DNA of 64,000 nucleotides from Myxococcales bacterium (lineage in GTDB: Bacteria > Myxococcota_A > Polyangia > Polyangiales > DASUME01): positions 3,584,001-3,648,000 of the forward strand of contig JASGJH010000001.1 in the NCBI GenBank assembly GCA_047601445.1, written 5' to 3'. Under the pieces are notes generated by a model. The model did no database searches and had not been told where the DNA came from. It saw only the letters and a program-made list of their open reading frames with translations. This document shows, piece by piece, positions 42,835 through 57,894 of this stretch (the first letter of the stretch is position 1; the number at the start of each line of letters is the position of its first letter). Made by a program: the position numbers and the translations under genes.

Positions 42835-42902
42835 GTTCGAAAAGGCGCGATCTCATTGCACGTTCGGCCTTGCGCTTGGCCGAGACGGTGCACACTTGGG
42901 GG

Positions 42903-44522
42903 ATGGATGAAAGCCGAGATGCTGGGACTCGCGGGCGAGCAGGACAGAACCGCTTGAATCGAAGAATGTTCGTGCAGAACACGGCCTGCGCCGCCGGTGC
43001 TGCGTTCCTCGCGCAATGCTGGGGCGAGCCCGCAGCGGCGGATGCTCCGCCCCTCCCCCTCGGACCCGCCGAGCCCTTCGACTTCGCGGAACTCGTGAAG
43101 AAGGCGGCGGTCCGAGCCAGTGCCCCCTACGTGCCCGCGCCCAAGCCAGCGCCCGAGATCATGGCGCAGATGATCTACGACCAGCACGAGGCCATCCACT
43201 ACCGCCCTGATCGCGCGCTGTTCGCCGATTCGCCCTACCCGGTGTTTTTCCGCCACCTCGGCAAGCTTTTCCCGAGCACCGTGAAGATGTACGCCCTCGA
43301 TGGCGGCCAGGCGCGCGAGGTGCTCTACGACCCGTCGCTCTTCACCATGCCCAAGGACTCGGTCGCGAAGAAGCTGCCCAAGGACGCCGGCTTCGCTGGC
43401 CTCTCATTCCAGACGGCAGGCAAGTTCGACCCGGTGGACAAGGGCTGGCTGTGCTTCCTTGGAGCATCGTATTTCCGCGGCGTCGGAGAGAACACCGAGA
43501 TGGGCATCTCGGCGCGCGCGGTGGCCGTAAACACGGCGCCTCCCGGCAAGGAAGAGTTCCCCGGCTACGTGGCGTTCTACATCGCTGGCGCCAAGGGCGA
43601 AGGCGACCCCGTGGTGGTGCACGCGCTGCTCGACTCACCGAGCATCTCGGGAGCCTATCGCTTCACCTGTCACCGCAAGAACGGCGTCACCATGGAGGTG
43701 GAGTGCCGCCTCTTCTTGCGCGAGGACATCGACAAGCTCGGCATCGCTCCGCTGACCTCGATGTTCTGGTACGCCGAGTACGGTCGCGGCAATCACATCG
43801 ACTGGCGCCCCGAAGTTCACGACTCCGACGGTCTCCTGCTGTGGACCGGCTCGGGCAAGCGCATCTTTCGCGCGCTCGAGAACTACAAGGAGTTCACCAT
43901 CTCCACGTTCCCTGACAAGAACCCCAAGGGCTTCGGGTTGACCCAGCGCGACCGCGACCAGAACCACTTCCTCGATCCGGTGTACTACGAGCGCCGGCCG
44001 AGCCTGTGGATCGAGCCCATCGGCAACTGGGGCAGCGGCCACGTGGAGCTGGTGGAGATCCCCACCGTCGACGAGTACCACGACAACCTGGTGAGCTACT
44101 GGGTGCCCGCGGCGCCGAGCAAGAAGGGCGCGAAGTTCGAGTTCAACTACCGCATGCACTGGCGCAACGACGAGCCCTACCCGCCGTCCGATCTGGCGCG
44201 CGTGCGAGAGACCTATATCGGTCGTGGCGGCGAGCCAGCCACCCCCGATCCCGTGGGCATCACCAAGTTCGTGGTGGAGTTCCAGGGCAAGCCGCTCGAC
44301 GCTGTGGCCGATCCGAAGCAAGTCGTGGCCAAGCTCAAGACCTCGCTCGGGGAAATCGTTTCTCAGAAGATGCAGCGCGTGCCCAACACCACGCGCTACC
44401 AGATCCACTTCGACGTCAAACCCGGCAAGCCCGGTGTGGCCGAGCTCGAAGCGACGCTGTTCGTGGGCCAAAAGCCGGTCACCGAGACCTGGCGCTATCG
44501 TTTCGTCACAGGGAAAACATGA
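42903..44522 (+). CDS. opgD: Glucan biosynthesis protein OpgD/OpgG family, Tat-exported
   Basis: Tat motif LNRRMFV; FLGASYFR, GISAR, EEFP, APLTSMF, RPEVHDSDG, YERRPSLWIEP. Confidence 0.85.
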   Translation: MDESRDAGTRGRAGQNRLNRRMFVQNTACAAGAAFLAQCWGEPAAADAPPLPLGPAEPFDFAELVKKAAVRASAPYVPAPKPAPEIMAQMIYDQHEAIHYRPDRALFADSPYPVFFRHLGKLFPSTVKMYALDGGQAREVLYDPSLFTMPKDSVAKKLPKDAGFAGLSFQTAGKFDPVDKGWLCFLGASYFRGVGENTEMGISARAVAVNTAPPGKEEFPGYVAFYIAGAKGEGDPVVVHALLDSPSISGAYRFTCHRKNGVTMEVECRLFLREDIDKLGIAPLTSMFWYAEYGRGNHIDWRPEVHDSDGLLLWTGSGKRIFRALENYKEFTISTFPDKNPKGFGLTQRDRDQNHFLDPVYYERRPSLWIEPIGNWGSGHVELVEIPTVDEYHDNLVSYWVPAAPSKKGAKFEFNYRMHWRNDEPYPPSDLARVRETYIGRGGEPATPDPVGITKFVVEFQGKPLDAVADPKQVVAKLKTSLGEIVSQKMQRVPNTTRYQIHFDVKPGKPGVAELEATLFVGQKPVTETWRYRFVTGKT

Positions 44523-46141
44523 GAAGTAGTCATTCGAAGCCCCGCGCTCTGCCGGCGCTGCTCGCCTGCGGCGCATTGCTCGCCGGTTGCAACGGCGCGC
44601 CCCCGAGCCGCCCCAAGTCCCAGGTCGATCATCCCGTGCAGACCAAGCCCGATGCCGGAGCGCAAGCGGTGGTCACCCGCGACAGCTTCACGCCGCCCGA
44701 GCAATTCGCACTGATGGTGGACCGCGCGCGCGAAGAGAGCCGCCACGTGGGCAAGCCCCTCAAGCGCATGGAGCTCCCGCCTTCCCTGCAGAACCTGGAC
44801 TACGAGAAGTACATCACCATCCGCTATCGGCCGGAGAAGAGCCTGTGGCGTAACGAGCCGGGTCACTTCGAGGTGCAGTTCTTCCACGTGGGTTTGCACT
44901 ACTACGAGCCGCTCAAGATGGAGGTGCTCGAGCACGACAAGCTCTCGCTGATCCCGTTCAACCCCGAGTTGTTCTCCTACGACGGCGTGACCCCGCCGCC
45001 CGCCGACGCCGAGCTCGGCTTCGCCGGCTTCCGCATCCACGCGAACCTCAATCGCGCCGACTATCGCGACGAGTTCATCGTATTCCAGGGCGCGAGCTAC
45101 TACCGCACTGTGGCCAAGGGACAGATTTACGGCTTGTCCGGCCGCGGCCTGGCCATCGACACGGGCGAGCCCGGCCCCGAAGAGTTCCCGCGCTTCACGG
45201 AGTTCGTGCTGGTTCGCCCGCAGGCCAACGACACGTTCATGTGGGTGCTGGCGTTCCTGGAGAGCCCGCGCGTCACCGGGGCCTATGCCTTCCGCATCCA
45301 GCCTGGCGATGAGACGCAAATCGAGGTCACCGCGCGCGTTTTCCCACGCAGTCCCATCAAGGTGCTCGGTGTGGCGCCCCTCACCAGCATGTTCCTGTAC
45401 GGAGAAGAGTCGCCGCCCAATCGCTTCGGCGGAGATCATCCGAACCTCAAGCGTCCCGAGGCACACGACTCCGACAGCTTGGTCAGCTGGAGCGGCCAGG
45501 GCGAATGGTTGGTGCGCCCTCTGCGCAACCCGCCGAAGACCCAGGTCTCCACGTTTCGCCTGGATTCTCCGCGCGGCTTCGGCTTGATCCAGCGCGACCG
45601 CAGACCCGAGAGCTACAACGACCCGGAGTACGCCTACGAGCGCCGTCCGAGCGCCTGGATCGAGCCCCTCGACAACTGGGGCCCGGGTTCACTGCGCTTG
45701 CTCGAGATCGGCACTCAGCTCGAGAGCGACGACAACATCGGCGCCATGTGGGTGCCTGACGCGATCGCACCCGAGGCCGATGGCCTGAACCTGCACTACC
45801 GCGTGCACATCGGCATGGGCCTACCCACGGGGCTCGGGCCGGCTTCCCAGGCGCTCGACACGCGCTTCAAAGATCTCGGCGGCGGGCGCACGCGCTTCGA
45901 GGTGGAGTTCGCGGGGGCGGCCCTCACGGATGCCAATCCCCAGCACCCACTCGAGGCCATCGTGAGCGCCCATGGCGGCAAGATCACCTCCCAGCGCGTC
46001 GACCAGGACGCCAGCAACGGGCGCGCGAAACTCACCTTCGAGGTGAAGCGCGACGGCGCGGGCGCCGTGGATTTGCGCGCGTTCTTGCGCTCGGGTCCCG
46101 ACGCGTCGAGCGAGACGTGGGTCTATCTGCTGAGCGACTGA
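44519..46141 (+). CDS. opgG: Second OpgG/OpgD-family protein, predicted lipoprotein
   Basis: Lipobox LAGC; FQGASYYR, YGLSGRGLAIDT, APLTSMFLYGE, RPEAHDSD; ATGA overlap. The family is secure; G versus D is uncertain. Confidence 0.8.
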   Translation: MRSSHSKPRALPALLACGALLAGCNGAPPSRPKSQVDHPVQTKPDAGAQAVVTRDSFTPPEQFALMVDRAREESRHVGKPLKRMELPPSLQNLDYEKYITIRYRPEKSLWRNEPGHFEVQFFHVGLHYYEPLKMEVLEHDKLSLIPFNPELFSYDGVTPPPADAELGFAGFRIHANLNRADYRDEFIVFQGASYYRTVAKGQIYGLSGRGLAIDTGEPGPEEFPRFTEFVLVRPQANDTFMWVLAFLESPRVTGAYAFRIQPGDETQIEVTARVFPRSPIKVLGVAPLTSMFLYGEESPPNRFGGDHPNLKRPEAHDSDSLVSWSGQGEWLVRPLRNPPKTQVSTFRLDSPRGFGLIQRDRRPESYNDPEYAYERRPSAWIEPLDNWGPGSLRLLEIGTQLESDDNIGAMWVPDAIAPEADGLNLHYRVHIGMGLPTGLGPASQALDTRFKDLGGGRTRFEVEFAGAALTDANPQHPLEAIVSAHGGKITSQRVDQDASNGRAKLTFEVKRDGAGAVDLRAFLRSGPDASSETWVYLLSD

Positions 46142-46260: not shown

Positions 46261-47379
46261 CTAGGCGTACTCGTTCACCCACCGATCGATCTCGATGCGC
46301 GCCATCACGAGGTTGGTCTCGTCGGGGTCGAAGAGCAGCAAGGCAAAGCAACGCGGCCGCTTGGGCAAGGGCTTGATCAGCTCGCAGCACGACTGCGTGG
46401 AGACGACTAGCTCCATGAGCTCGGCATCTGCCTGGGAAGCTGCGAGCGTGACGTACTCCTGGCGCAACACGCTGGCAGCGCTCTCTGCCCACTGGCTCAT
46501 GTCGATGGGCGGCTTGGATTCGCAGGCGAGGGTTAGTCCGGTCTCCGCGTCCACCAGGGCCAGCCCCAGGGAGCCGGGGAACAAGGTCATGGTCTTGGGC
46601 AAGCGCGCCAGGAAGCTCGGCAGACGTGGCACCGGCGGCAGCTCCGACTTGAGCGGCACCAACGACTCCTGCAGGCGCTTGAACGACATCTCCTCGCCAT
46701 CGAACTCCACCGGCACGTTGCGTCCTGCCTCGTCGCGATACTGCAGCGCCGACATCAACACATGACTGATCGGTCTGTGGATGGTGCGCTCGGGTGCGAA
46801 GCAGCCATGCTCCACATACACGTCGCCGGTCAGCCAGCCGATGATGACGTAGGCCGCGGTGTCGGCGGTCAAGCCGTCGAAGCGAGCTTCGAGGAGCTCC
46901 CCGCGCATCACGAACATGGTTCCGGTGCGACCTGCACTCTCGATCCGTAGGCTGCAGGTCTTGCGCTCGATCTCGAGCAGCTGCAGGAACGCGGGAATGT
47001 TCATGTTGTGCAACGAGCCGTAACAGGTCTCCGCCAAGCCGCTGGTGAGCTGCACCAGCATATCGGTGGCATCGAACGGCTCGACCATACATGCGATCAC
47101 GCCGAGGCGCGCGGCGCGCTGCCTGAGCTCGGGAGTGTCCTCCGGCAGCAGCACGAAGCGCCCCAACCGCGGCTGCTCCTTCTGGAGCCACTCGAGCAGC
47201 CTCCAGGCTTCGGCCAGCTGGACGTCCACGAAGGCCGCCTCGAAGGGCTTGCTCTTGAGCTCCTCCATGGCCCGCCCGTGGCTGTTCACGAGGACCGTCT
47301 CGAAGTCCATGTGAAAGGCAGAAAGGACCTGCGTAAGGACGCCTCCCTTGCCTGGCTCGATCGTTAGAATTCGGATCAC
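46261..47379 (-). CDS. Atypical receiver + DUF4388 + roadblock-like domain protein
   Basis: REC fold (FVDVQ; EPF instead of KPF), GSLHNMNIPAFLQLLEIERKTCSLRI...GELLEA, C-terminal GSLGLALVDAETGLTL...MELVVSTQSCCELIKPL...NLVMAR. Confidence 0.8.
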   Translation of the reverse strand: MIRILTIEPGKGGVLTQVLSAFHMDFETVLVNSHGRAMEELKSKPFEAAFVDVQLAEAWRLLEWLQKEQPRLGRFVLLPEDTPELRQRAARLGVIACMVEPFDATDMLVQLTSGLAETCYGSLHNMNIPAFLQLLEIERKTCSLRIESAGRTGTMFVMRGELLEARFDGLTADTAAYVIIGWLTGDVYVEHGCFAPERTIHRPISHVLMSALQYRDEAGRNVPVEFDGEEMSFKRLQESLVPLKSELPPVPRLPSFLARLPKTMTLFPGSLGLALVDAETGLTLACESKPPIDMSQWAESAASVLRQEYVTLAASQADAELMELVVSTQSCCELIKPLPKRPRCFALLLFDPDETNLVMARIEIDRWVNEYA

Positions 47380-48239
47380 GACCGCACCTGCGCGTTGGTT
47401 GAGGAGTCATGCGTGCGCGCGCGCTTGGCGAGCTGGCTCAGCAAGAGCGTGGAGGCCGGACGACTCGAACAGACAGCTGCGTAACTGACGCGACTGTCGC
47501 GCCAGGTCACGATGGCAGTGTTGCTGCACCAGGTGGCCGAAGCCACCGACGTGCCCGGCTCGAAGAACGTGGTGACGTCGAACAACCGGGTCGACCAACT
47601 GCCGATCTCCAGGGCCTCGGCCACGCGCAACTCACAGGCAGGGTCCACCGCCAGGACCATCGGAATGCCGAGCTGCTCGTGCCGCGAGAAGGCAAAGCCC
47701 GTGGCACCCGCGACCAACGTCTGCTGTAGCCGCTCGTGCGCGGAGGCGGCAACCTCGGGCTGTTGGCTTGCTGCCACGGAAGCCAGAAGCTCCACCGCCT
47801 GGAACACGAAGCGGGCGTCATAGCCGGTCTTGGTATGCGGCAAGAACCCCGTGGGGCGACGTCGAGCCCGCGCGATGCGCCCTACCGCTTCGCCGGTATG
47901 GGCCGAAAGCGCTCGACGCAGTTGCCCCTCCGACAGCAGACCACTCGAGACCAGCGCCTCCCCGATGGGTTTGCCGCCCTCCTTGCACTGGCGGAACAAG
48001 TCTTCCATCGCGGTGCGCGGCAGCGGAGGGTTCTTTTGCTGGCACAGGATGTCCGTGAGTCGCTTGTGCATGTTGGCAGCGACGGCCCAGCAGATGCGCC
48101 GGTTCTGCAGCAGGATCACGCCGTCGTCGCCGAACGACAGCACGCCAGTGGCGGTCGCCGGCATGCTCTCGATGTGCTCGAGCAGCTCCACGGCGGCAGG
48201 GAGCGTTGCGATCTCGGCTTGAGCAAGCTCGACGGACAT
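47376..48239 (-). CDS. Hypothetical protein: DUF4388-like N-terminus, MshEN-like motif, possible roadblock-like C-terminus
   Basis: TGVLSFGDDGVILLQNRRICWA, KPIGEALVSSGLLSEGQLRRAL; translationally coupled within the operon. Confidence 0.65.
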   Translation of the reverse strand: MSVELAQAEIATLPAAVELLEHIESMPATATGVLSFGDDGVILLQNRRICWAVAANMHKRLTDILCQQKNPPLPRTAMEDLFRQCKEGGKPIGEALVSSGLLSEGQLRRALSAHTGEAVGRIARARRRPTGFLPHTKTGYDARFVFQAVELLASVAASQQPEVAASAHERLQQTLVAGATGFAFSRHEQLGIPMVLAVDPACELRVAEALEIGSWSTRLFDVTTFFEPGTSVASATWCSNTAIVTWRDSRVSYAAVCSSRPASTLLLSQLAKRARTHDSSTNAQVRS

Positions 48240-48243
48240 CAGC

Positions 48244-48648
48244 TCAAGCCCTCCCGCTTGGATCACGCGCCGATCCGCGTGCCCCTGCCAGCTCGAGCAT
48301 GCGTCGGCGCACGCCCGAGAGCACCAGCCCGACATTGGGAACGCCCGAGGCGATGGCCACCAAAGCGACGTCTTGCTCGTTGGGCAATCGCTCCATCACG
48401 CGCACGGAGCCAGCCGACACCAGCACGATCTCCCGAAACTCCTTGCCCCCTTCGCTCCCGAAGCGCGCGAACAAAGCTGCCCAATCGGCACTCTGCGCCA
48501 CGCCGAACAACTCCGGGGACGCATTGGCCGTGTCGGAGAGGGTCGATACAGGGCTGCCATCGTCCGCCAGCACGCGCAGCACGATACCCGTGCGCAGGCA
48601 CACCAGCGCGAAAGCGATCTCTTCCACCTGCTGCTCGCTCGTATTCAT
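48244..48648 (-). CDS. Divergent roadblock/LC7 (MglB-like) protein
   Basis: AFALVCLRTGIVL...FREIVLVSAGSVRVMERL...VALVAIA...NVGLVLSGVRR pattern. Confidence 0.65.
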   Translation of the reverse strand: MNTSEQQVEEIAFALVCLRTGIVLRVLADDGSPVSTLSDTANASPELFGVAQSADWAALFARFGSEGGKEFREIVLVSAGSVRVMERLPNEQDVALVAIASGVPNVGLVLSGVRRRMLELAGARGSARDPSGRA

Positions 48649-49319
48649 GAGCTCGGCCCCCCGCGCGGCGGCTTGCTGCGCGGGGCGTGCAAGGTCGCCC
48701 AGTCGCGCTGCTCGCGCTCTTCGATGCGTTGCAACAGCTCCAGCATCAGCGTGTGGAAGGGCCGATGGATGGTGCGCGGCACGTCGCGCGTTGGAATGCG
48801 GGAAAGACGTGCATGCCCCGCCGCCAGCACTTCGGCCAAGGCTCCCTCCCCTTGCATGTCGCCCAGTTGGGCGTGAATCAGCTCACCAGCCTCGAGGTAG
48901 AGCTCGGCGTCGCCCACCACGAAGCCCACGCTCTGGGCCTCCGTGTGAGCGCGCCGCAGGACATCCACGAGCAGCATCGGCTCCGAACCGAGCGAGCCCA
49001 ATGTCTCGCGCAAGGTGGTGAGGAGCTGCGCGCTGGTGAAGGGCTTGCGCAGCAGGAGGCCCCGGCCGAACAAGCGATGGCGCCCCTCGTGCTCCATGAA
49101 CGAGGTCGTCAAGATGAGCGGGAGCTTGGCAAAGGCCGTGAGGTCCGCCGGATCGAGCGAGTCCGAGTCGAGCACGGCCACGTCGAACCCGTGCGCTTCG
49201 ACCTCCGCTCTCGCGACCTCGATGCACTGGGAGCCCACCACGTCCACACCGTAGTGGCGCAGCGTCCGGCTCACCGCGGCGATCAAGCGGGTGTCGAGAT
49301 CGAGCATCAAGAGCCTCAT
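48645..49319 (-). CDS. Response regulator (REC) + DUF4388 domain
   Basis: DVAVLDS, LILTTS, LRKPF; then LYLEAGELIHAQLGDMQGEGAL, RTIHRPFHTLMLE; ATGA overlaps at both ends. Confidence 0.8.
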   Translation of the reverse strand: MRLLMLDLDTRLIAAVSRTLRHYGVDVVGSQCIEVARAEVEAHGFDVAVLDSDSLDPADLTAFAKLPLILTTSFMEHEGRHRLFGRGLLLRKPFTSAQLLTTLRETLGSLGSEPMLLVDVLRRAHTEAQSVGFVVGDAELYLEAGELIHAQLGDMQGEGALAEVLAAGHARLSRIPTRDVPRTIHRPFHTLMLELLQRIEEREQRDWATLHAPRSKPPRGGPSS

Positions 49320-50335
49320 CGGGGACCGTCCGAGCGCGGCAAGAACACGGCGAAGGCACTCCCGCGCGGGTCCGCCTCCAGTAGCAGGCGTCCGCCCTGA
49401 TTTTCGGCAGCTGCACGAGCCTCGGCCAGCGCGATCTGACTCGAAAGCAACTCGCGGGGAGCCGTGGCCTCGAGCAGCCCGTCCCAGGCGCGCGACGAGA
49501 GGGCCGGCCCGTCGTCGCACACGCGGAGGTACAGGTGTGACCCGGGATGACTCGAAGAGAGGCTCGAACTGATGGTGACCTGACATGGCACCGCCGCGCG
49601 CTCCGCCGAGTGGAGCAGCAGGTTGACGAAGATCTGCTCGATCACGATGGGATTGCCGCGCACCCAGGCCGACTCGGGGTGCAGTTCGATGCGCACCCGA
49701 TGTAGACCGTCGCGGTAGAGCGAGTTGAGCAGACTTTGCGCCCGGTTCACCACCTCGAACAACGACACCGGCACCGAGATTGGCGGTCCCAGACGCGCAT
49801 AGTCGAGCAGACCATCCAACGTGAGCTGCAACCGGCGACTCGCATCGCAGATGTCCTTCACCGTCTCGCGCAGGCTCTCGTACACCATGCTGCGGCCGCT
49901 CGAGTCGAGGAAGTCTGCGCTATAGACGATGCTGGCGACCGAGCTGCGGAGCTCGTGGGCCACGCTGGCCACGAGTCGGTGGGTAGACTCGAGGCGCGGT
50001 TGGTGCGCCGGCAGAGCGGACACGGGATGGCCTGCAATCTCCCGCAGCAAGAGCATGTATCCGCCGCCCTCGACCGCGTAGCGCGTGCACCCGAGGTGAC
50101 TCTGCGCCTCCCGCTCCGGGCTCCACGCGACGTAGTCTCCGGTAGCCGTCTGCTCGAGCAAACGCCAGAGCTCTCCCGGCAGCTGCAGGGGCTCGTGATC
50201 ACCGAGCACGCGCGCGAGGAGCGCCAGCGCGGGCGGCGTCGCAGACTGTAGGGAGCCGTCGCCCGAGCAGAAGGCCACCGGTGCCGGCATGCCCTCCGAG
50301 AGCAGCAGACACCGTGCGCACTCTGAACGCGTCAT
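49316..50335 (-). CDS. PAS-like histidine kinase with degenerate ATP-binding domain; start uncertain
   Basis: H-box VAHELRSSV; N-box EQIFVNLLLHS; DDGP; no G2 box. ATG 50335 chosen because the sigma-54 promoter overlaps the longer ORF start. Confidence 0.8.
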   Translation of the reverse strand: MTRSECARCLLLSEGMPAPVAFCSGDGSLQSATPPALALLARVLGDHEPLQLPGELWRLLEQTATGDYVAWSPEREAQSHLGCTRYAVEGGGYMLLLREIAGHPVSALPAHQPRLESTHRLVASVAHELRSSVASIVYSADFLDSSGRSMVYESLRETVKDICDASRRLQLTLDGLLDYARLGPPISVPVSLFEVVNRAQSLLNSLYRDGLHRVRIELHPESAWVRGNPIVIEQIFVNLLLHSAERAAVPCQVTISSSLSSSHPGSHLYLRVCDDGPALSSRAWDGLLEATAPRELLSSQIALAEARAAAENQGGRLLLEADPRGSAFAVFLPRSDGPR

Positions 50336-50364
50336 CGCCTGGGTCGAGTCCACCGAACGCCAAC

Positions 50365-50382
50365 TTGCAAGCGACAAGCCAC
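50365..50382 (-). promoter_or_regulatory. Sigma-54 (-24/-12) promoter of the leftward operon
   Basis: Minus strand TGGCTTGTCGCTTGCA, exact GG-N10-GC spacing. Confidence 0.7.
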
Positions 50383-50498
50383 GCTCGCGTCGTGTTGTCT
50401 CGCGCGCTCCTCACGCACCGTTCTGCGCGTCTGCGCCGGCGAACGCGTGAGCTCTTCCTTCTAGCGCGCCACCGCAGGCCCGCCGTGGAGCCCGCCGC

Positions 50499-50550
50499 AG
50501 TCGGAATCCGCCATGGCGGGCCCTGCCGTCCGGCGTGTCGCATTCCGCCA
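50499..50550. promoter_or_regulatory. Candidate enhancer (UAS) pair for a sigma-54 activator
   Basis: AGTCGGAATCCGCCA (50499-50513) and TGTCGCATTCCGCCA (50536-50550), fitting TGNCG-N5-CGNCA. Confidence 0.55.
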
Positions 50551-50622
50551 TGTACGAAAGTCTAATCTCGTGTGTTTAGCGCGATATTCACGGGTTTTTG
50601 CAAGATCGCCACGCTGCACATT

Positions 50623-50640
50623 TTGGCCTCACGCTTGCAT
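50623..50640 (+). promoter_or_regulatory. Sigma-54 (-24/-12) promoter of the roadblock-roadblock-GTPase operon
   Basis: TTGGCCTCACGCTTGCAT, exact GG-N10-GC spacing, ~95 nt upstream of GTG 50735. Confidence 0.75.
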
Positions 50641-50734
50641 TGACTGGCGTTCGCAAAGGCTAGACGGCGTATCCGCATCGGTTGCGGTGACGAGCGAGCT
50701 GGCATCCAACGAGTCGGATCGATACGGAGGCACT

Positions 50735-51097
50735 GTGGCAAACATCAAGGAATCCCTCACTAGGATCATGCAGCTCGACGGTGCTGTAGGTTGCTGCATC
50801 GTGGACAGCAACAGCGGCATGATGCTCGGCGCGGACGGCGGCGGGAGCATGAACCTCGAGGTCGCGGCAGCTGGCAACACCGAGGTGGTGCGCGCCAAGC
50901 GTAAGACGATGCGCTCCTTGAACCTCAAGGACAACATCGAGGACATCCTCATCACGCTCCACAATCAGTATCACCTGATCCGCCCGCTCACGTCGAACGA
51001 CGCGCTCTTCATCTACCTCGTGCTCGACAAGCAGAAGGGCAACCTCGCCATGTCGCGCCACCAGTTGGGAGCCATCGAACGCGACCTGTCCGTCTGA
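50735..51097 (+). CDS. Roadblock/LC7-domain protein
   Basis: IMQLDGAVGCCIVDSNSGMMLG, AAAGNTEVVRAK, IEDILITL, YHLIRP, FIYLVLD, NLAMSR; GGAGG RBS. Confidence 0.88.
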   Translation: MANIKESLTRIMQLDGAVGCCIVDSNSGMMLGADGGGSMNLEVAAAGNTEVVRAKRKTMRSLNLKDNIEDILITLHNQYHLIRPLTSNDALFIYLVLDKQKGNLAMSRHQLGAIERDLSV

Positions 51098-51128
51098 ACC
51101 AATCTTCGACCTCGAAAGGATCAAACTC

Positions 51129-51497
51129 ATGCCCAGCGAAAAGCAGCTCTCCGAAGTTCTCGAACGGATTCAAGGCGACGCCAACGGCTTCATCGCAGCC
51201 TCCCTGGTGGATCTGGACTCGGGTATGACCCTGGCGGTCAAGTCCCTGCGTTCGGACTTCGACCTCACGGCGGCCAGCGCCTACAACAGCGAGCTCGTGA
51301 AGCAGAAGCTCAAGATCATGCGCACCCTGGGGCTCACGGGCGGCATCGAGGACATGCTCATCTCGCTCACCGATCAGATCCACTTGGTGAAGCTGGTGGG
51401 TCCGAACACCTTCCTCTACCTCGCCGTGGACAAGAAGCAGAGCAACATCGCCATCGTACGCACGGCGGTGAACAAGCACGTTTCTGCTCTCGGCTGA
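51129..51497 (+). CDS. Roadblock/LC7-domain protein (paralogue)
   Basis: GFIAASLVDLDSGMTL, ASAYNSELVKQK, IEDMLISL, FLYLAVD, NIAIVR. Confidence 0.88.
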   Translation: MPSEKQLSEVLERIQGDANGFIAASLVDLDSGMTLAVKSLRSDFDLTAASAYNSELVKQKLKIMRTLGLTGGIEDMLISLTDQIHLVKLVGPNTFLYLAVDKKQSNIAIVRTAVNKHVSALG

Positions 51498-51595
51498 AGC
51501 GCGCCGCGCAGCGTGACCCGCCGCTCTCGGCCGCTTTTCCGGGGGGGAAGAGTATGCCGAGGGCGGCGCAGGCTTTTAACCGCCCAGGAACGGAT

Positions 51596-53096
51596 ATGCC
51601 CACGATCGACCCTGCCAAAGGTGTGCTCGTCATTCGCGTCGTCTACGACGGCCCCGCGCTGTCCGGAAAGACCACGAGCTTGCGGGCACTGGCCAAGGGC
51701 GTGTCGCGTGACGTGGAGTGTCCAGGTGAGAAGGACGGGCGCACCCTGTACTTCGATTGGGTCGACTACGTGGGCGGCATCTTCGAGGGTCGACAAATCC
51801 GCTGCCAGATCGTGAGTGTCCCCGGTCAAAAGCAGCTAGCCAAGCGCCGCAAGTTCTTGCTAGAGAGCGCCGATGCGGTGGTATGCGTGCTCGATACGCG
51901 CGCTGGGGAGATCGAGTTCGGCCTCAATTGGCTCTCGGATCTGACCACCAGCTGCCGCAAGAAGAGTCCTCCGGTGGGGATCGTGCTCCAGGCCAACAAG
52001 CGCGACGCCATCGACGCCGTGCCGCGCGAGGAGCTGAGGACGCGCATCAACAAGGTGGCGCCCATCGCCATCGTGGAATCCGTGGCCCGCGCTTCGGACG
52101 GCATCCGCGAGGCCTTCGTGCTGGCAGTGCGCCTCGCGCTCGATCGCGTCCGCGCGCTCTCGGCCGAAGGGCGCCTGGAGAGCAGTACGTCCTACGATGA
52201 GCGTGCCCAGGATCTGCTGACCAAGCTGGAGCAGGCCGAGTCGGTGGCCGACGTCGCGCTGCCCGAGCAGGCCGCCTACGGAGAGCCCATCCCGCCCCTC
52301 ACCGAGGTCACGCCCCTCGCAGTACGCGGCCCGGGCAGCGCGGAGGACGAGCCGCTCGAGGTCGGCGAGGAACGCGTGTTCGTCCCGGATCCGATGATGC
52401 CAGGTGGGATGATTTGGCCGCCCGTCGACGGGCGCACGTTGCTCTACGAAGTGGCGGGGCTAGGCATTCGCCCGGCGCGCACGCCGCGCGGGGAATGGTG
52501 GGGTTCAGGCTCGGGCTGGCGCTTTCACTCCCAGGCCAACGCGATTCTATCGAGATCACAACCGGGCGCGCGCCGAGCTCATCGACCGCGCGCGACTACA
52601 CGCCGCCAATGCCGCCCACATCTCTCCGGGACGCGCCGTGATCCTGGCCGACGCTGGCTCCGGCAGGCTCCGGCTGTGGCAGCTGGTCCGCGTGGAGCCC
52701 GTGTTACGCGAGCGGTTGGCCGGAGCGATGGCGGCCCCCGATGCCCGAAGCGTGGCGCTCGGCTTCCTCGATGTGGCCCTGCAACTACTCACGGCGCGCG
52801 AGTGGTTCAGCAAGGGGGCCATCCAGCTGCCCTGTACGCTCTGGACGGTCGGCTCCGACCGTCCCAATCGGCCCACCTTCGTCGGGCTGATGCCGGACGG
52901 CCACTCGCCCACCTTGCCCGAGGTCGGCCCCGCGGCGCTGCTGCGACGGGAGCTCACGCCGCACCTGCGGGAGCTGCGGCGCTCGCGCGTGGACTACGCC
53001 GAGGTCTTCGCCGAAGTGGCGGCGCAAGCTTCCATCACGCGCGCCCAGGAGGACCCGGCGCGGCTCCTTGGAGCGGTCGTGCTCGAGTTCGACTAG
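51596..53096 (+). CDS. MglA-like small GTPase with ~300-aa C-terminal extension; +1 frameshift at ~52545
   Basis: VVYDGPALSGKTT, GRTLYFDW, SVPGQ, ADAVVCVLD, ANKRD; joins ORF 52638..53096 when a T is removed from GATTC (52543-52547). Confidence 0.85.
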
Positions 53097-53105
53097 AGCC
53101 GTCGC

Positions 53106-54527
53106 TCAGCGCAGTCCGTAGCGGCGCAGTCGATCGCGCAGGGTGGTGCGCGGCAGCCCGAGTACGCGCGCCGCAGCGCTCAAGTTGTGCCCGGAGGACT
53201 CCCAGGTTTCCTGAATGGTGCGGCGTTCGAGATCACGCAGCGGCTCGAGTCGGACGCCACTCTGAGTCGGTGAGCTGAACTGAGCCACCTGCACCTGGGC
53301 CGTCTTGCTCTCCGCGATGGGCTCTCGACTCTCCGCGAGCGCGGTATGACTCGGACGTTCCTGGCGATCCTTCAGCGCAGCCATCAGCTCTGCCACGCCC
53401 ACTCGCCCACCGGCCGACAACACGGCCGCCTGCTGCACCACCGCGCGCAGCTCGCGCACGTTGCCAGGCCACGCATAGGCGTGGAGCGCTTCGATGGCGC
53501 GCGGCGAAAAGTCGACCTCCACCCCATAGCGCTCCGCGAAGTCTCCCAGGAAGTGACGCGCCAGCATGTCGATGTCTTCGGAGCGGTCGCGCAGGGGCGG
53601 CGTGGTGATGGTGAAGCCGGCCAGGCGATAGTAGAGATCACTGCGTAGGCTGGAGGCCGTCCCGATCAAGTTGCGGTGCGTCGCACTGATCACGCGCGCC
53701 CGAAACGGGATGTCGCGCGAGCTGCCCACGCGCCGAAAACTGCGGGTCTCCAGGGCGCGCAGCAACTTGGGCTGCAGTGAACTCGGTAGCTCGCCGATCT
53801 CGTCGAGGAACAAGGTGCCAGAACCGGCGCTCTCGAAGAGGCCCGGGCGGCTGCCGCGCGCGCCGGTGAAGGAGCCTGCTTCGTGGCCGAACAACTCGCT
53901 CTCGAACAGGGACTCGGGGATAGCCGCGCAGTTCACGGGCACGAAGGGGCCGTCGGTCTCGCTCGTGCTGTGCACCGCCTGCGCCACCAACTCCTTGCCG
54001 GTGCCCGTCTCACCCAGGATGAGCACGGGTAGATCGCGATAGCGAGCCACGGTCCGCACCTGCTCGCGCACGGCCCGGATGGCTGGCGCCTCGCCCTTGA
54101 TGAGGTTCGAGAGCGCGGACCCGGAGGCGCGTGGCAGCTCGATCGCAGCAGGTCGCTTCCCCTCGACGACCGCGCGCAGGCGCTGGTCGAGGGTGGCCGC
54201 GCTGATCGGCTTCTCGAGCACGTCCTGAGCGCCGGCGCGCACCGCCTTGACCGCCGACGCCACGTCGAGATGAGCGGACATCAAGACCAGTGCCGACGGA
54301 ACGTTGCGCGCACTCAAGCGCTCGATCAACGACAGGCCGTCCATACCTGGCATCTGCAGGTCGACCACGATGGCTTCGCTGGGCTCGGCTTGGATGGCCT
54401 GCAACGCTTCGTCGCCGCTCCCCGCGACACGCACCGTCCAACCGCGCATCGACAACTCGCGAGCGAGCGAACGCGCGTGGAGAAGGTCGTCGTCTACAAG
54501 CAGTACGGCAGAAGACCGAGCGTGCAT
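53106..54527 (-). CDS. Sigma-54-dependent response regulator (NtrC family; REC-AAA+-Fis HTH)
   Basis: [62 protein letters not shown]. Confidence 0.95.
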
Positions 54528-54834
54528 TGAAGTGTCCTTGGGGGGGCCCACAACACAACTGCACTCCTCGCACGCGAAGTCCGCTCGCCCGCGGTTCGCT
54601 GCGAAACTAGCCCCGAAAAACTCTAGCCCAAACGCGCCATGCGCTTCAACTTGTAAGTACGCCCAGCCTCGGCGCACAACAAGTCGTGGGTACGCGGCGC
54701 ACCGCACTCACTTCGCACTCGGTCGAAGTACGCCCTCGGACGCGCGAGCAAAAAGTCCGGCGAGTGCATCACCGCAAGTGCGTGGATAGTTCCGAATGGG
54801 AACGCTACGCGTCACGACGCGCGCTCCCACGCGT

Positions 54835-55152
54835 TCACGACGCGCGGTTGAACTTGTGTTGCTTGACGGACTCGACGGGACCTTCGAGCGCCTGCAGCGC
54901 GGCCGTGTCGATGCAGCTGCCCGTGAACTCGAACTCCAGATCGTGGATGGTGTTGCCACGTTGGAGTGTGAGCGTCATGCGGTTCTTGGAGAGATTGCGC
55001 GCAGCAACGTAGGAATCCATGTCGCTCATCAGGACGCCGTTAACGATCAACAAGCGATCGCCCACGCGCACACCGGCCTTCTCGGCCGGGGACCCTGGAA
55101 AGAGAACGAGGACAGGAATTCCTTCGACTTGCGTTGCGGACACGGCTACCAC
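54835..55152 (-). CDS. Stand-alone PDZ-domain protein
   Basis: GSPAEKAGVRVGDRLLIVNG, TLTLQRG. Confidence 0.75.
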   Translation of the reverse strand: MVAVSATQVEGIPVLVLFPGSPAEKAGVRVGDRLLIVNGVLMSDMDSYVAARNLSKNRMTLTLQRGNTIHDLEFEFTGSCIDTAALQALEGPVESVKQHKFNRAS

Positions 55153-55295: not shown

Positions 55296-56774
55296 TCAAC
55301 AACGCGGACGTTCCAGTAGATCCACCCAGAGATCACGCTGGAGTTGGCTCAGCAACGCTCGCGCTTCGACAACGCTCGGCAATCCAAGCTCGCGCTCCAT
55401 TCGTGTCTCGGGCTGCGCCGCCGCTACGTTGCTTGCGAGCTGGGCGATCGCTTCGCGCAAGGCTGCGTCGATGCGAGCGCGAGCCGGCTCCGCGAGCTGC
55501 GGCATGAGCCAGGCGTGTACCGCGAACGACAGCGAGGCGTGACCCAGCTCATCGTCCGCGATGGATCCCATGCTGCGCTGGACGCGCGAGTCGGCCGCGC
55601 GGACCGCCTGAAATGCACCGACCATGGCGCCGAAGGTCTCGCGCACGCAGCCCTCGACGGCGTTCTCGAGCGCGATGCTCTCGAGCGAGCGCACCGGCAG
55701 CGTGGCGAGCGCGGGCTCCGCTAGCTCGCTTGCTCCGAACGCTCGCGCCAGGGCACCGACCTGCCGTGTGTGCCGCGCCTCCTCCACGCTGGCCCGTCGT
55801 GCCGCTTCGACCAACGCCAATGGTGCGCCGTGATGCGCGAGCTCCTCCGCCAGGCGCTCGAAGGCCAGCACGCTGGCGGCCTCGAGGTACGCGCTCTGCG
55901 CCAGGAACGCCGCGCACTCGTCTCCCTTCGAAGCCGGCGTGGTGGGCGCCAAGCCTGCGGGCATACGCCCCACGCAAGCCTCACTGCGCGAGCGTTCTTC
56001 GGATGAGATCTCGCTGACCTCTCCGGTAAAGCTGACGAGCAACCAGTAGCCGGTCGTGATCATGGGCGAGCAGGTGGAGGTGAGCCTGGTGGCGTAGACC
56101 TCGTAGCCGCGCTCGTTGCGCCTCGCCTGGGTGGATTCGGCCTCGCACGAGACGTTGTAGTGCTCGGCTTGCACCAACAGCAGGGCCTCATCCACCGTGT
56201 CGATGGGCGCCAAAAACTCTCGCAGTTCCTTGGCCGTGGCCCAGCGCCGCACGTCGCCGGCCCGCGTGGTCACCACGGAGATCTCACGACAGATCTGCAG
56301 ACACTGCGGGTTGGTGAAATTCACCGGATGGCGTTCGACTTGCTTCAAACAAGTGGAGCCCGCTGGGGCAGAACTGCACGGGGTGCCGCGCTGGCTCAAG
56401 ACTTCGAACTGCGTTTGCGTCCAGTTCTCCGGGCCGCCCTGGTCGGGGATCCCGCTCGCGCTGCGCAGTGCGAGGTAGTCGACCGGCACGATGGGCTGCA
56501 AATTGGTCGCGTTAACGGGGAAATTGCTGTTTGTGTCGCACTGCACGCGCTCGGGCACCGCGATCGGCGGGGGCGCCACGCTCGGCTGCAGCGGCGGTCG
56601 CTCGGTGGGCTTGGAAGGCATGGCCTTCGGCACCATGCCGGGCGGACTGCACGCACTCATGGGCAACGCAGCGAGCAGCGCGCTCTGAAGCGCCCGGGTC
56701 CGCACCGCACGCAGCATCAGCTCCACCGGATCCTGCGCTCCATCACGCGGCACGACGTGGCCATCCTTCGCCAT
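55296..56774 (-). CDS. Putative lipoprotein with Cys-rich N-domain and C-terminal ferritin-like (di-iron) domain
   Basis: LLAALPMSAC, GRMPAGL, LEAASVLAF, EEARH, ENAVEGCVRE, DDELGH. Confidence 0.8.
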   Translation of the reverse strand: MAKDGHVVPRDGAQDPVELMLRAVRTRALQSALLAALPMSACSPPGMVPKAMPSKPTERPPLQPSVAPPPIAVPERVQCDTNSNFPVNATNLQPIVPVDYLALRSASGIPDQGGPENWTQTQFEVLSQRGTPCSSAPAGSTCLKQVERHPVNFTNPQCLQICREISVVTTRAGDVRRWATAKELREFLAPIDTVDEALLLVQAEHYNVSCEAESTQARRNERGYEVYATRLTSTCSPMITTGYWLLVSFTGEVSEISSEERSRSEACVGRMPAGLAPTTPASKGDECAAFLAQSAYLEAASVLAFERLAEELAHHGAPLALVEAARRASVEEARHTRQVGALARAFGASELAEPALATLPVRSLESIALENAVEGCVRETFGAMVGAFQAVRAADSRVQRSMGSIADDELGHASLSFAVHAWLMPQLAEPARARIDAALREAIAQLASNVAAAQPETRMERELGLPSVVEARALLSQLQRDLWVDLLERPRC

Positions 56775-56829: not shown

Positions 56830-57894
56830 ATGCCACGCAAACCCACCAAGGCCTCAGGCAAGCCGCGCGCGAGCAAGGGCGAAACGCGCGAGCAGAGCCA
56901 GGACGCCCCCAAGACCAAGCCGCGCAAGCGCAAGAAGACGGTCGAGGCCAAGAGCGTCGGGCTCACGGCCGAACAGTGCGTGGTGGAGACCTCGACGCGC
57001 GAGCTCGAGCCGCTCGCAGCGCGGATCGAACAGGTCGGCGGCCACGTGTTGTGCCGCTATCGGGAGCCCCTCTCGGGTGGGTACGTGCTGTTCGCTGTCT
57101 TGCCCATCGACCAGATCGCGCCCACGCCCTTTCAGCGTGAGCTCTCGAAGACCCACGCCCAACGATTGAGCGAAGTGATCCCCAAGGTGGGCCGCTTCCT
57201 CGATCCCGTGGTGGCGGTCGCAGGTACGGTAGGCGACGCCAGCTTCATGACCCCGAACGGGATGCATCGCCTATCTGCCATGACCAGCCTCGGCGCCAAG
57301 GCCATCACCGCGCTGGTGGTACCCGAACAGGAAATCGCCTATCGCATCCTCGCGCTCAACACGGAGAAGGCCCACAACCTGCGGGACAAGGCGCTCGAAG
57401 TGGTGCGCATGGCCCATGCGCTCTCGGAGGCGGAGGCCACCTCCGAGCACCACGAGACCGAGTTCACGCTCGAGTTCGAGCAGCCTGCACTGCTGACACT
57501 CGGTCTCTGCTACGAGGAGAACGGGCGCTTCTCGGGCGGGGCCTACATGCCTGTGGTGAGTCGCTGCGAGGAGTTCCTGGATCAGCCGCTCTCCGAGACG
57601 CTGCCCATGCGCAAGGAGCGCGCGGAGAAGCTGCTCGAACTCGATCAGGCCGTGAACGAGGCGGTCAAGAAGCTGAAGGACGCTGGCTTTACGTCGGGCT
57701 ACTTGAAACCCGTGGTGGTGGCGCGCATCAACCCGCTGCGGTTCGTGAAGGCCAAGCCGGGCGAGCCCGTGCGAGGAGATTTCGACAAGACCGTGGGCCG
57801 GATGCTCGAGGGAGCGCGCAAGTTCGACGCGTCGAAGGTCAAGGCCTCGGACATCGCGCTGGCAGCCAGCATGGGGAGCGGCGAGGAGAACTGA
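56830..57894 (+). CDS. ParB/Srx N-terminal domain protein (orphan)
   Basis: LPIDQIAPTPFQR, FLDPVV, TPNGMHRL, LALNTEK. Confidence 0.75.
   Translation: MPRKPTKASGKPRASKGETREQSQDAPKTKPRKRKKTVEAKSVGLTAEQCVVETSTRELEPLAARIEQVGGHVLCRYREPLSGGYVLFAVLPIDQIAPTPFQRELSKTHAQRLSEVIPKVGRFLDPVVAVAGTVGDASFMTPNGMHRLSAMTSLGAKAITALVVPEQEIAYRILALNTEKAHNLRDKALEVVRMAHALSEAEATSEHHETEFTLEFEQPALLTLGLCYEENGRFSGGAYMPVVSRCEEFLDQPLSETLPMRKERAEKLLELDQAVNEAVKKLKDAGFTSGYLKPVVVARINPLRFVKAKPGEPVRGDFDKTVGRMLEGARKFDASKVKASDIALAASMGSGEEN

Follow-up and report, generated by a model that had tools for sequence, protein, structure and literature searches.

An MglA-type GTPase with a predicted C-terminal pseudokinase domain at a divergent, sigma-54-associated roadblock locus of a Myxococcales bacterium

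The locus described here occupies positions 46,261 to 55,152 of a 64,000-nucleotide window (the whole stretch of DNA that was analysed) from contig JASGJH010000001.1 of a Myxococcales bacterium, and it centers on a gene, H, for an MglA-type GTPase joined to a C-terminal kinase-like domain. Ten genes, designated A to J, were confirmed at their predicted positions and strands in two divergent operons: E-D-C-B-A reads leftward and F-G-H rightward, and the genes for a transcriptional activator, I, and for a PDZ protein, J, are convergent toward H. This is the gene order and orientation given in a preliminary description of the window, which also had the leftward genes mostly joined by overlaps. 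Four-base overlaps (ATGA, ATGA and GTGA) are indeed found at three of the four leftward junctions, whereas C and B are separated by a gap of 4 nucleotides (nt).

The 5′ part of H (51596..52546, + strand) encodes a GTPase domain (approximately residues 1–190), a linker and the start of the kinase-like domain. A profile of the GTPase family matched MglA (3t12) best among solved structures (E 8e-39), so that the MglA-like GTPase of the preliminary description stands, although the fused kinase-like domain and a frameshift within the gene had been missed. The G, K and T of the P-loop GxxxxGK[T/S] are invariant in all 26 aligned rows, as are R49 and T50, the arginine finger beside the G2 threonine, which align with RTLFFD of MglA. 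The G3 and G4 motifs of the studied H read SVPGQ and NKRD; V, P, G, Q, N and D are invariant in the same rows and NKRD as a whole nearly so. By its sequence motifs, the domain carries the group-1 MglA signatures (P-loop, Arg finger, PGQ and G4), while the entire protein, at ~500 amino acids (aa), exceeds the 240-aa single-domain limit of the MglA survey. In a GTPase tree of 49 rows (43 fused GTPase domains, four unfused paralogs and two group-3-like proteins), the 43 fused domains lie across a long branch from the paralogs and group-3-like proteins (support 93/94, unstarred) and divide into the clade of the studied H (26 rows) and a sister clade (17 rows).

Does H encode a single protein? The gene runs on past a frameshift (52545..52547, +), where a base is present that four intact relatives lack, into a C-terminal domain of ~240 residues; the 3′ part (52548..53096, +) holds the rest of this domain, ends at 53096 and is 64% identical to the intact same-genus relative. 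In relatives, the two fragments correspond to successive, in-frame stretches of a single ~500-aa protein (tblastn), and codon-position GC changes frame at 52545–52547. Moreover, in the synteny sample of 36 related loci, every one of which comes from metagenome-assembled genomes, the GTPase and C-terminal domains share one frame in 34, the other two being cut before the GTPase domain. Comparison of the part after the shift with the same-genus relative gives nonsynonymous and synonymous divergences (dN and dS) of 0.27 and 2.09, which indicates purifying selection until recently. When 136 genes were compared with that relative, five lay in two frames and ~3 of these were true breaks by inspection, a background of ~2%; two DNA sequencing runs (5–6% of words) did not cover the frameshift with DNA of the studied organism. 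The extra base may be either an error of the assembly or a lesion of recent date. As H is in frame in relatives, a programmed frameshift was rejected.

The C-terminal domain, modelled from the intact same-genus relative (pLDDT 96.6), is predicted to have a protein-kinase fold. All 48 rows listed by Foldseek were kinase-fold entries (best E 0.009), as were 42 of the 50 rows of an independent wide structure search, a count in which EssB, PAN3 and the core unit of type VIIb are taken by us to be kinase-fold entries. The top row of the wide search was an unnamed chain (Z 7.4) and its best named kinase reached Z 6.6 with a root-mean-square deviation (rmsd) of 4.8 over 187 aligned residues; in a second structure comparison the best named kinase reached Z 7.0 (rmsd 5.2, 181 aligned). 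By Atlas features, the named clusters nearest to the studied type of domain are RIO1, ABC1 and Pkinase (0.88–0.89, to be read as leads only), and the motif-intact type described below lies nearest to DUF6206 (0.97, on ~200 of 256 features), followed by WaaY, Kdo and YrbL kinase-like clusters (0.89–0.90). Neither domain type is covered by a Pfam model, and no HMM match to DUF6206 (PF19709) was obtained. Matches of the C-terminal domain to WD40 proteins were judged spurious.

The sequence motifs of the sister clade provide a stronger argument for the kinase fold than the structure scores. The catalytic motifs of protein kinases are a Lys, DxxxxN and a metal-binding Asp. The sister-clade domain, which is homologous to that of the studied clade (hhalign 99.9%), carries a Gly-rich loop, Lys, DxxxxN and Asp arranged in kinase order; at the sister clade's catalytic columns the studied clade has His, Pro, Thr and Gly, and its Gly-rich loop is absent. 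Given this loss of Lys, DxxxxN and Asp, the domain of the studied clade is likely a pseudokinase. The domain profile finds 820 clusters at 50% identity. Among the best 150 of these, 105 are at least 440 aa long and 103 of the 105 have a P-loop at their start; all four residues are kept in 21 of the best 150 representatives, which group together, and none of Lys, Asp and Asp is kept in 120. The studied domain groups with the non-intact rows in a quick tree, and the kinase-domain and GTPase trees show the same two-clade split.

Phosphatase genes occur in six of 56 loci scanned (L027–L030, L032 and L039) and in none of the 36 studied-type loci within ~9 kb. The link between phosphatases and clade is loose, since some sister-clade copies are degenerate too. 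In L029 (6358–15967), a locus of the sister type that reads in one direction, genes for a kinase, a receiver-PATAN protein, a different pair of roadblocks, B and a GTPase whose kinase domain looks intact are followed 3′ of the GTPase by genes for a metallophosphoesterase, a fusion of ABC-ATPase-like and dual-specificity-phosphatase parts, and a Hanks kinase-cNMP protein; L027, L030 and L032 are also of the sister locus type. In P0219, P0221, P0258, P0262, P0340 and G038:C529 the kinase-like domain is present as a tandem duplicate, or as one copy plus a part.

Conserved synteny had been set beforehand as a test of the preliminary description, and the eight genes I, A, B, C, E, F, G and H were all present in 18 of the 36 related loci. 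For a further six loci the contig is short, and E too is absent from one of these; C or both B and C are missing in three. We conclude that the cluster is a real, conserved feature. Its spread is patchy: of 301 genomes from the phylum 4 carry it, and of 10 from the family 3 do. B-like genes, many of them weak matches, turn up in 37 of the 201 genomes from the order. No cultured carrier was identified among the 36 related loci or the 20 sequence clusters looked up. PADLOC returned no match for any of the nine proteins submitted (9/9), leaving an anti-phage role unsupported.

Sigma-54 promoters follow the consensus GG-N10-GC at −24/−12, with enhancer sites upstream. Between the two operons, one candidate −24/−12 site serves the leftward operon (50366..50381, −), 13 nt before the start codon of E, and consensus scoring places a second before the rightward operon (50624..50639, +). 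In a promoter sample composed of the studied locus and the 24 loci among L041–L066 that have DNA upstream of F, scores of at least 9 of 12 were obtained on each strand in 25/25 loci, against 4.9% in shuffles, and scores of at least 10 in 22/25 and 19/25 loci, against 0.5% in shuffles and 0/25 in control regions. The proposal of sigma-54 control is thus supported by promoters conserved on both strands. The leftward −12 element lies 13–17 nt from the start codon in 24 of the 25 loci, a spacing that suggests a near-leaderless mRNA and by which the start codon of E is probably the GTG at 50353. The same intergenic region contains two palindromic candidate enhancer sites without assigned strand (50499..50513 and 50536..50550), located with a palindrome matrix. 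The 15-bp palindrome is present in 55 copies in the 25 intergenic gaps versus one in control regions, and apart from the studied pair no cluster of such sites in the genome, a single contig of 9.5 Mb, is accompanied by a sigma-54 site. Based on co-occurrence, I is likely the protein that binds the palindromes. The studied genome contains rpoN, no conserved sigma-54 site was seen upstream of I (best score at most 9, 21 loci), and the promoter scores in one Acidobacteriota locus were 8 and 6.

The two-component layer consists of the activator I, the histidine kinase E and the receivers. I (53106..54527, −) is an NtrC-type sigma-54 activator composed of a receiver, an AAA+ domain and a Fis-type helix-turn-helix, as assigned by Pfam, NCBIfam and alignment, and its activator loop reads GSFTGA. 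The activators of L042, L045, L047, L052 and L053 carry GAFTSA or GAFTNA and an altered Walker A region, yet the sigma-54 sites of these loci are well conserved. E (49316..50353, −; 345 aa, with its start set by the promoter spacing) matched HisKA at 34.9 bits, above the Pfam cut-off, and HATPase_c at 20.3 bits, below the cut-off of 26.4, versus 73.6 bits for HATPase_c in a relative's kinase; its N-terminal domain is PAS-like by eye, with no Pfam match. An active histidine kinase has H, N, G1, F and G2 boxes. E retains the His box and DDGP, and the N-box Asn, the F box and the G2 (GxG) box are gone both in the studied genome and in the same-genus relative. The earlier claim of a degenerate histidine kinase therefore holds for the studied genus but not for the system, as 22 of 23 relatives retain the G2/GxG box. 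The receiver of A is atypical as well, its Asp being retained and its acidic pair and Lys gone, and it is canonical in most relatives (Response_reg 78.6 bits in L023). On this comparison of residues, the degeneracy of E and A is particular to the lineage and no defining property of the system.

The rightward operon begins with two roadblock-family genes. F (50735..51097, +; 120 aa) is highly conserved (dN 0.10 against the same-genus relative) and has a weak Pfam match to LAMTOR5 (E 2e-4), and G (51129..51497, +; 122 aa) is an F paralog with ~39% identity over 107 residues. A combined F/G profile matched MglC (7ct3) at E 0.003, and a profile of G only matched MglC at E 0.095. Orphan paralogs of F are found elsewhere in the genome at C1:7304119-7304481 (86%) and C1:8340276-8340638 (75% identical), the former divergent from a gene for a sigma-54 AAA+ activator with no obvious receiver.

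Three further roadblock-like domains are encoded in the leftward operon. A (46261..47379, −; 372 aa) comprises a receiver (Response_reg 16 bits), a PATAN/DUF4388 domain (Pfam E 4e-12) and a C-terminus that matches the F profile at E 4e-8. C (48244..48648, −; 134 aa) is a divergent stand-alone roadblock-like protein that aligns to the F/G profile by hhalign (94.7%, E 6e-8); its own profile found no roadblock in the PDB, and it has no Pfam match at all. B (47376..48239, −; 287 aa) has a weak Pfam match to DUF4388, and its model (pLDDT 91.7) shows a PATAN-like part at the N-terminus and a roadblock at the C-terminus (Z 10.6, rmsd 3.0, 104 aligned); B also carries an insert that is MshEN-like but degenerate. 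Comparison of B with F/G by hhalign was negative (0.3%), though the fold search was positive. Pfam Robl_LC7 matched none of A, B, C, F and G. The "up to five" roadblock-like domains of the preliminary description are thus supported, one by predicted fold (B) and four by profile (A, C, F and G). The preliminary description had some of them fused to receivers; only the roadblock of A is.

Could B provide a cyclic di-GMP (c-di-GMP) input, as had been suggested? The insert is homologous to the N-terminal domain of MshE (5htl, E 3e-7) and reaches 25.4 bits against a cut-off of 38 for the NCBIfam c-di-GMP motif. MshEN receptors of c-di-GMP bear two RLGxx...Q motifs, which include Gly11 and Gly40. 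Relative to MshE, Gly11 is replaced by Thr in 70 of 76 sequences (RLT), Arg38 by Pro in 72 of 76 and Gln61 by His in 68 of 76. The available part of the MshE study reports that changes at Gly11 abolish c-di-GMP binding (PMC5013675). Considering this requirement and the replaced motif residues, c-di-GMP input via B is unlikely.

D (48645..49319, −; 224 aa) is an accessory receiver and PATAN-like protein, assigned by a weak Pfam DUF4388 match and alignment, and it is present in only three of the 36 related loci and in L024. J (54835..55152, −) is a solo PDZ protein (Pfam PDZ_6, E 5e-10) present in 19 of the 36 loci with variable placement. Pfam matches agree with the preliminary description for the PDZ protein, for the sigma-54 activator and for DUF4388, which matches strongly in A and only weakly in B and D. 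Outside the cluster, two tandem MdoG-family periplasmic glucan genes (42870–46141, +) end 120 bp from gene A, and two long open reading frames to the right of the PDZ gene (55296–56774, −, 492 aa; 56830–57894, +, 354 aa) have no Pfam match.

We propose, with a probability of roughly 0.55, that the locus encodes an MglA-type GTPase with its own predicted pseudokinase domain, switched by roadblock proteins and expressed via a sigma-54 loop driven by I. Phosphorylated I would act on the inter-operon palindromes such that both sigma-54 promoters fire; the sites are evident from their conservation and their binding is inferred. E would phosphorylate the receiver of A and probably I too, and phosphorylation of I by E would constitute positive feedback. 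By analogy to MglA/MglB, F and G may form a standing regulator dimer of the GTPase, and C together with the roadblock tails of A and B may act as exchangeable partners or scaffolds. If the roadblock of A is exchangeable, phosphorylation of A would alter the nucleotide state or the location of H. GTP-loaded H would signal via the kinase-fold domain, presumably a non-catalytic binding platform in the studied clade, whereas the sister clade would probably have a working kinase. When F, G and the GTPase domain were modelled together with GTP, the predicted complex received a score of 0.02 and a mark of 0.32, which weighs on neither side. Because H is split and the motifs for E-to-A phosphotransfer are eroded, the studied copy may be rewired or partly disabled.

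Several observations count against this proposal. Nine of the 36 loci (seven from Acidobacteriota and two from Gammaproteobacteria) contain a bare (F)-G-H core without E, B and I, situated after a PATAN gene or a group-3-like operon, and such loci mark the two-component layer, together with the sigma-54 control, as an addition to the core. In the studied genome H is frameshifted, E lacks its ATP-binding motifs and the receiver of A is atypical. The activator loop varies, with GAFTGA in five, GSFTGA in three and the changed form GAFT[SN]A in five of 13 aligned activators. The studied locus's own two sigma-54 sites score 9 and 10 of 12, which is insignificant alone (41 matches versus 29.7 expected), and the gaps scored with the palindrome matrix also served to train it. 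As for the fold, no kinase match is significant singly (best E 0.009; Z below 8, the tool's ambiguous range; rmsd ~5 Å), and Pfam and PDB sequence searches with the C-terminal domain found no kinase family.

An alternative hypothesis is that the locus is an accessory polarity or motility module, in which H is a polar MglA paralog that adjusts the motor of a type IV pilus or of type II secretion via the PATAN/MshEN-like proteins A, B and D, and the kinase-like domain is only a localisation tag. The group-1 motifs of H fit this hypothesis, as does the resemblance of the B insert to the N-termini of PilB, PilF and MshE, and the available text of a study of Synechocystis has PATAN regulators binding pilus motor parts and notes MglA/MglB neighbours (10.1101/2021.06.11.447907). 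However, no pilus or secretion gene was recognised beside the locus, where the flanks are annotated in part, a canonical mglBA lies elsewhere in the genome, and the patchy spread across the phylum and family is unlike that of a core motility gene. We regard a polarity role as unlikely, though somewhat more probable than the two explanations that follow.

A lower probability is assigned to the hypothesis that the locus is a decaying relic in the studied genome, with a real frameshift, a dead E and an A that is not phosphorylatable, such that only F, G and the activator matter. The extra base in H, the loss of the N-box and GxG box from E and the atypical receiver of A would all be expected of decay, the leftward genes have diverged further from the same-genus relative (dN 0.35–0.51) than F, G and the GTPase domain (0.08–0.12), and the ~3 breaks in 136 compared genes set a background of only ~2%. 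What argues against decay is that purifying selection is recorded, and codon bias persists, on both sides of the shift, that the promoters and palindromes are intact, and that the same-genus relative has an equally eroded E with an intact H, which indicates that the erosion is old and tolerated. Least probable of all is that the C-terminal domain is not kinase-derived, being instead a new effector domain of alpha/beta type that matches kinases weakly on account of a common two-lobed arrangement: the ambiguous Z scores and the lack of a sequence-level match to kinase families would allow it, but the homologous clade with Gly-loop, Lys, DxxxxN and Asp in kinase order, the proximity of that clade to DUF6206 and to the WaaY, Kdo and YrbL kinase-like clusters in Atlas features, and the metallophosphoesterases and dual-specificity phosphatases encoded in some of its loci oppose it.

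How does the proposed GTPase-pseudokinase switch compare with known systems? It shares with the MglA/MglB/MglC modules of Myxococcus xanthus and Thermus thermophilus the motifs of the GTPase (the intrinsic Arg finger and PGQ among them), the roadblock genes directly upstream of the GTPase, and the profile match of F/G to MglC. It differs in that H is a ~500-aa protein with a fused kinase-like domain in its own long-branch clade, and in that the studied locus has as many as five roadblock domains and comes with its own histidine kinase, with an activator and with sigma-54 promoters. In the canonical polarity module the roadblock dimer serves as GTPase-activating protein and localisation is polar. 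As the preliminary description stated, the locus is not the canonical mglBA; that pair is located at C1:1048659-1049758, and H is ~32% identical to its MglA and on a separate tree branch. The genome further encodes, in G000:C1:1048659-1053944, 474897-475571 and 2014781-2015539, the canonical mglBA and three more MglA-like genes, one with a long C-terminal extension. The available portion of the MglA survey defines group-1 MglA by the Arg finger and PGQ-type motifs, places it near PATAN genes, in some cases with two MglB genes, notes receiver-roadblock fusions, and leaves out GTPases longer than 240 aa (PMC4316618). For this reason the claim of an undescribed system was only partly right: no paper on the H fusion or on DUF6206 was found, in a search that left subscription papers mostly outside, but MglA-PATAN neighbourhoods, 1:2 MglA:MglB arrangements and receiver-roadblock fusions are in the available portion of that survey. 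Group-3 MglA of beta- and gamma-Proteobacteria likewise has one or two roadblock genes adjoining the GTPase, but H lacks the GTPGQ and G2-Thr signature and is distant in the tree. In two Gammaproteobacteria (L072:5182-9720 and L075:850-5411), F-G-H follows an apparent group-3 MglA operon, which gives two GTPases and three roadblocks per run.

The conservons of actinobacteria and related G-protein systems (CvnA-D) also unite a histidine kinase, a roadblock and a small GTPase in one locus, according to the available parts of two sources (PMC13343842, PMC4316618). In the latter, conservon GTPases belong to group 2 (GTPGQ) and lack the Arg finger, CvnC is present and a response regulator is absent. 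The arginine of H is invariant, the locus has three receiver proteins in a divergent layout, and no CvnC-type Pfam match was obtained; the earlier view that this is not a conservon is upheld by the group-1 Arg finger, the PGQ motif and the presence of receivers. DUF4388 is equivalent to PATAN and is linked to pilus motors in the available text of the Synechocystis study (10.1101/2021.06.11.447907). A and D share the receiver and DUF4388 combination of PatA-type regulators, but B, a receiver-less combination of PATAN, the degenerate MshEN-like insert and a roadblock, departs both from these and from receiver-roadblock fusions, and A, B and D are co-encoded with a GTPase fusion. DUF6206, the named Atlas family nearest to the motif-intact domain, is itself uncharacterised.

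Two further systems offer a parallel in logic only. Roco proteins, such as LRRK2, have a Roc-COR-kinase architecture, and in Rag-Ragulator-mTORC1 a GTPase is held by several roadblock domains. The resemblance of H to the former lies in a small GTPase domain and a kinase fold in one chain, with no common descent claimed, and that to the latter in a GTPase accompanied by several roadblock domains, Ragulator/Rag chains being among the fold matches of B. Unlike Roco proteins, H is of MglA type, with a Pfam Roc match of only E 0.07 and no match to a COR family, and its kinase-like domain is unclassified and devoid of catalytic residues in the studied clade. A broader and distinctly speculative extension of our proposal is that the entire family of more than 800 clusters consists of GTPase-gated kinases and pseudokinases, with up to five roadblock domains as a scaffold and a sigma-54 feedback latch, in which the active branch would be opposed by co-encoded phosphatases and the studied pseudokinase branch would be purely conformational. 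Doubtful as this extension is, it would represent, if true, a prokaryotic parallel to Roco kinases and to kinase control by Rag-Ragulator.

To our knowledge, the MglA-family GTPases of bacteria consist of one domain each and act as switches whose effectors are separate proteins. In H the likely effector is fused, and it comes from a kinase-like family outside Pfam that exists in motif-intact and motif-dead forms. With this pair, the question of whether GTP gates a kinase in bacteria can be put to a direct test on recombinant proteins. The five different roadblock domains provide material for asking how pairing sets a GTPase-activating, nucleotide-exchange or scaffold role, and the activator, palindrome and two promoters make a compact regulatory unit suited to tests in reporter strains. 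The surprising part is the kinase-like domain fused to the GTPase in live-looking and dead forms; neighbourhoods of MglA, roadblock and PATAN genes are already published. The system probably works like an MglA/MglB switch, one that is likely self-activating, yet it is not the polarity module, a conservon or a Roco protein.

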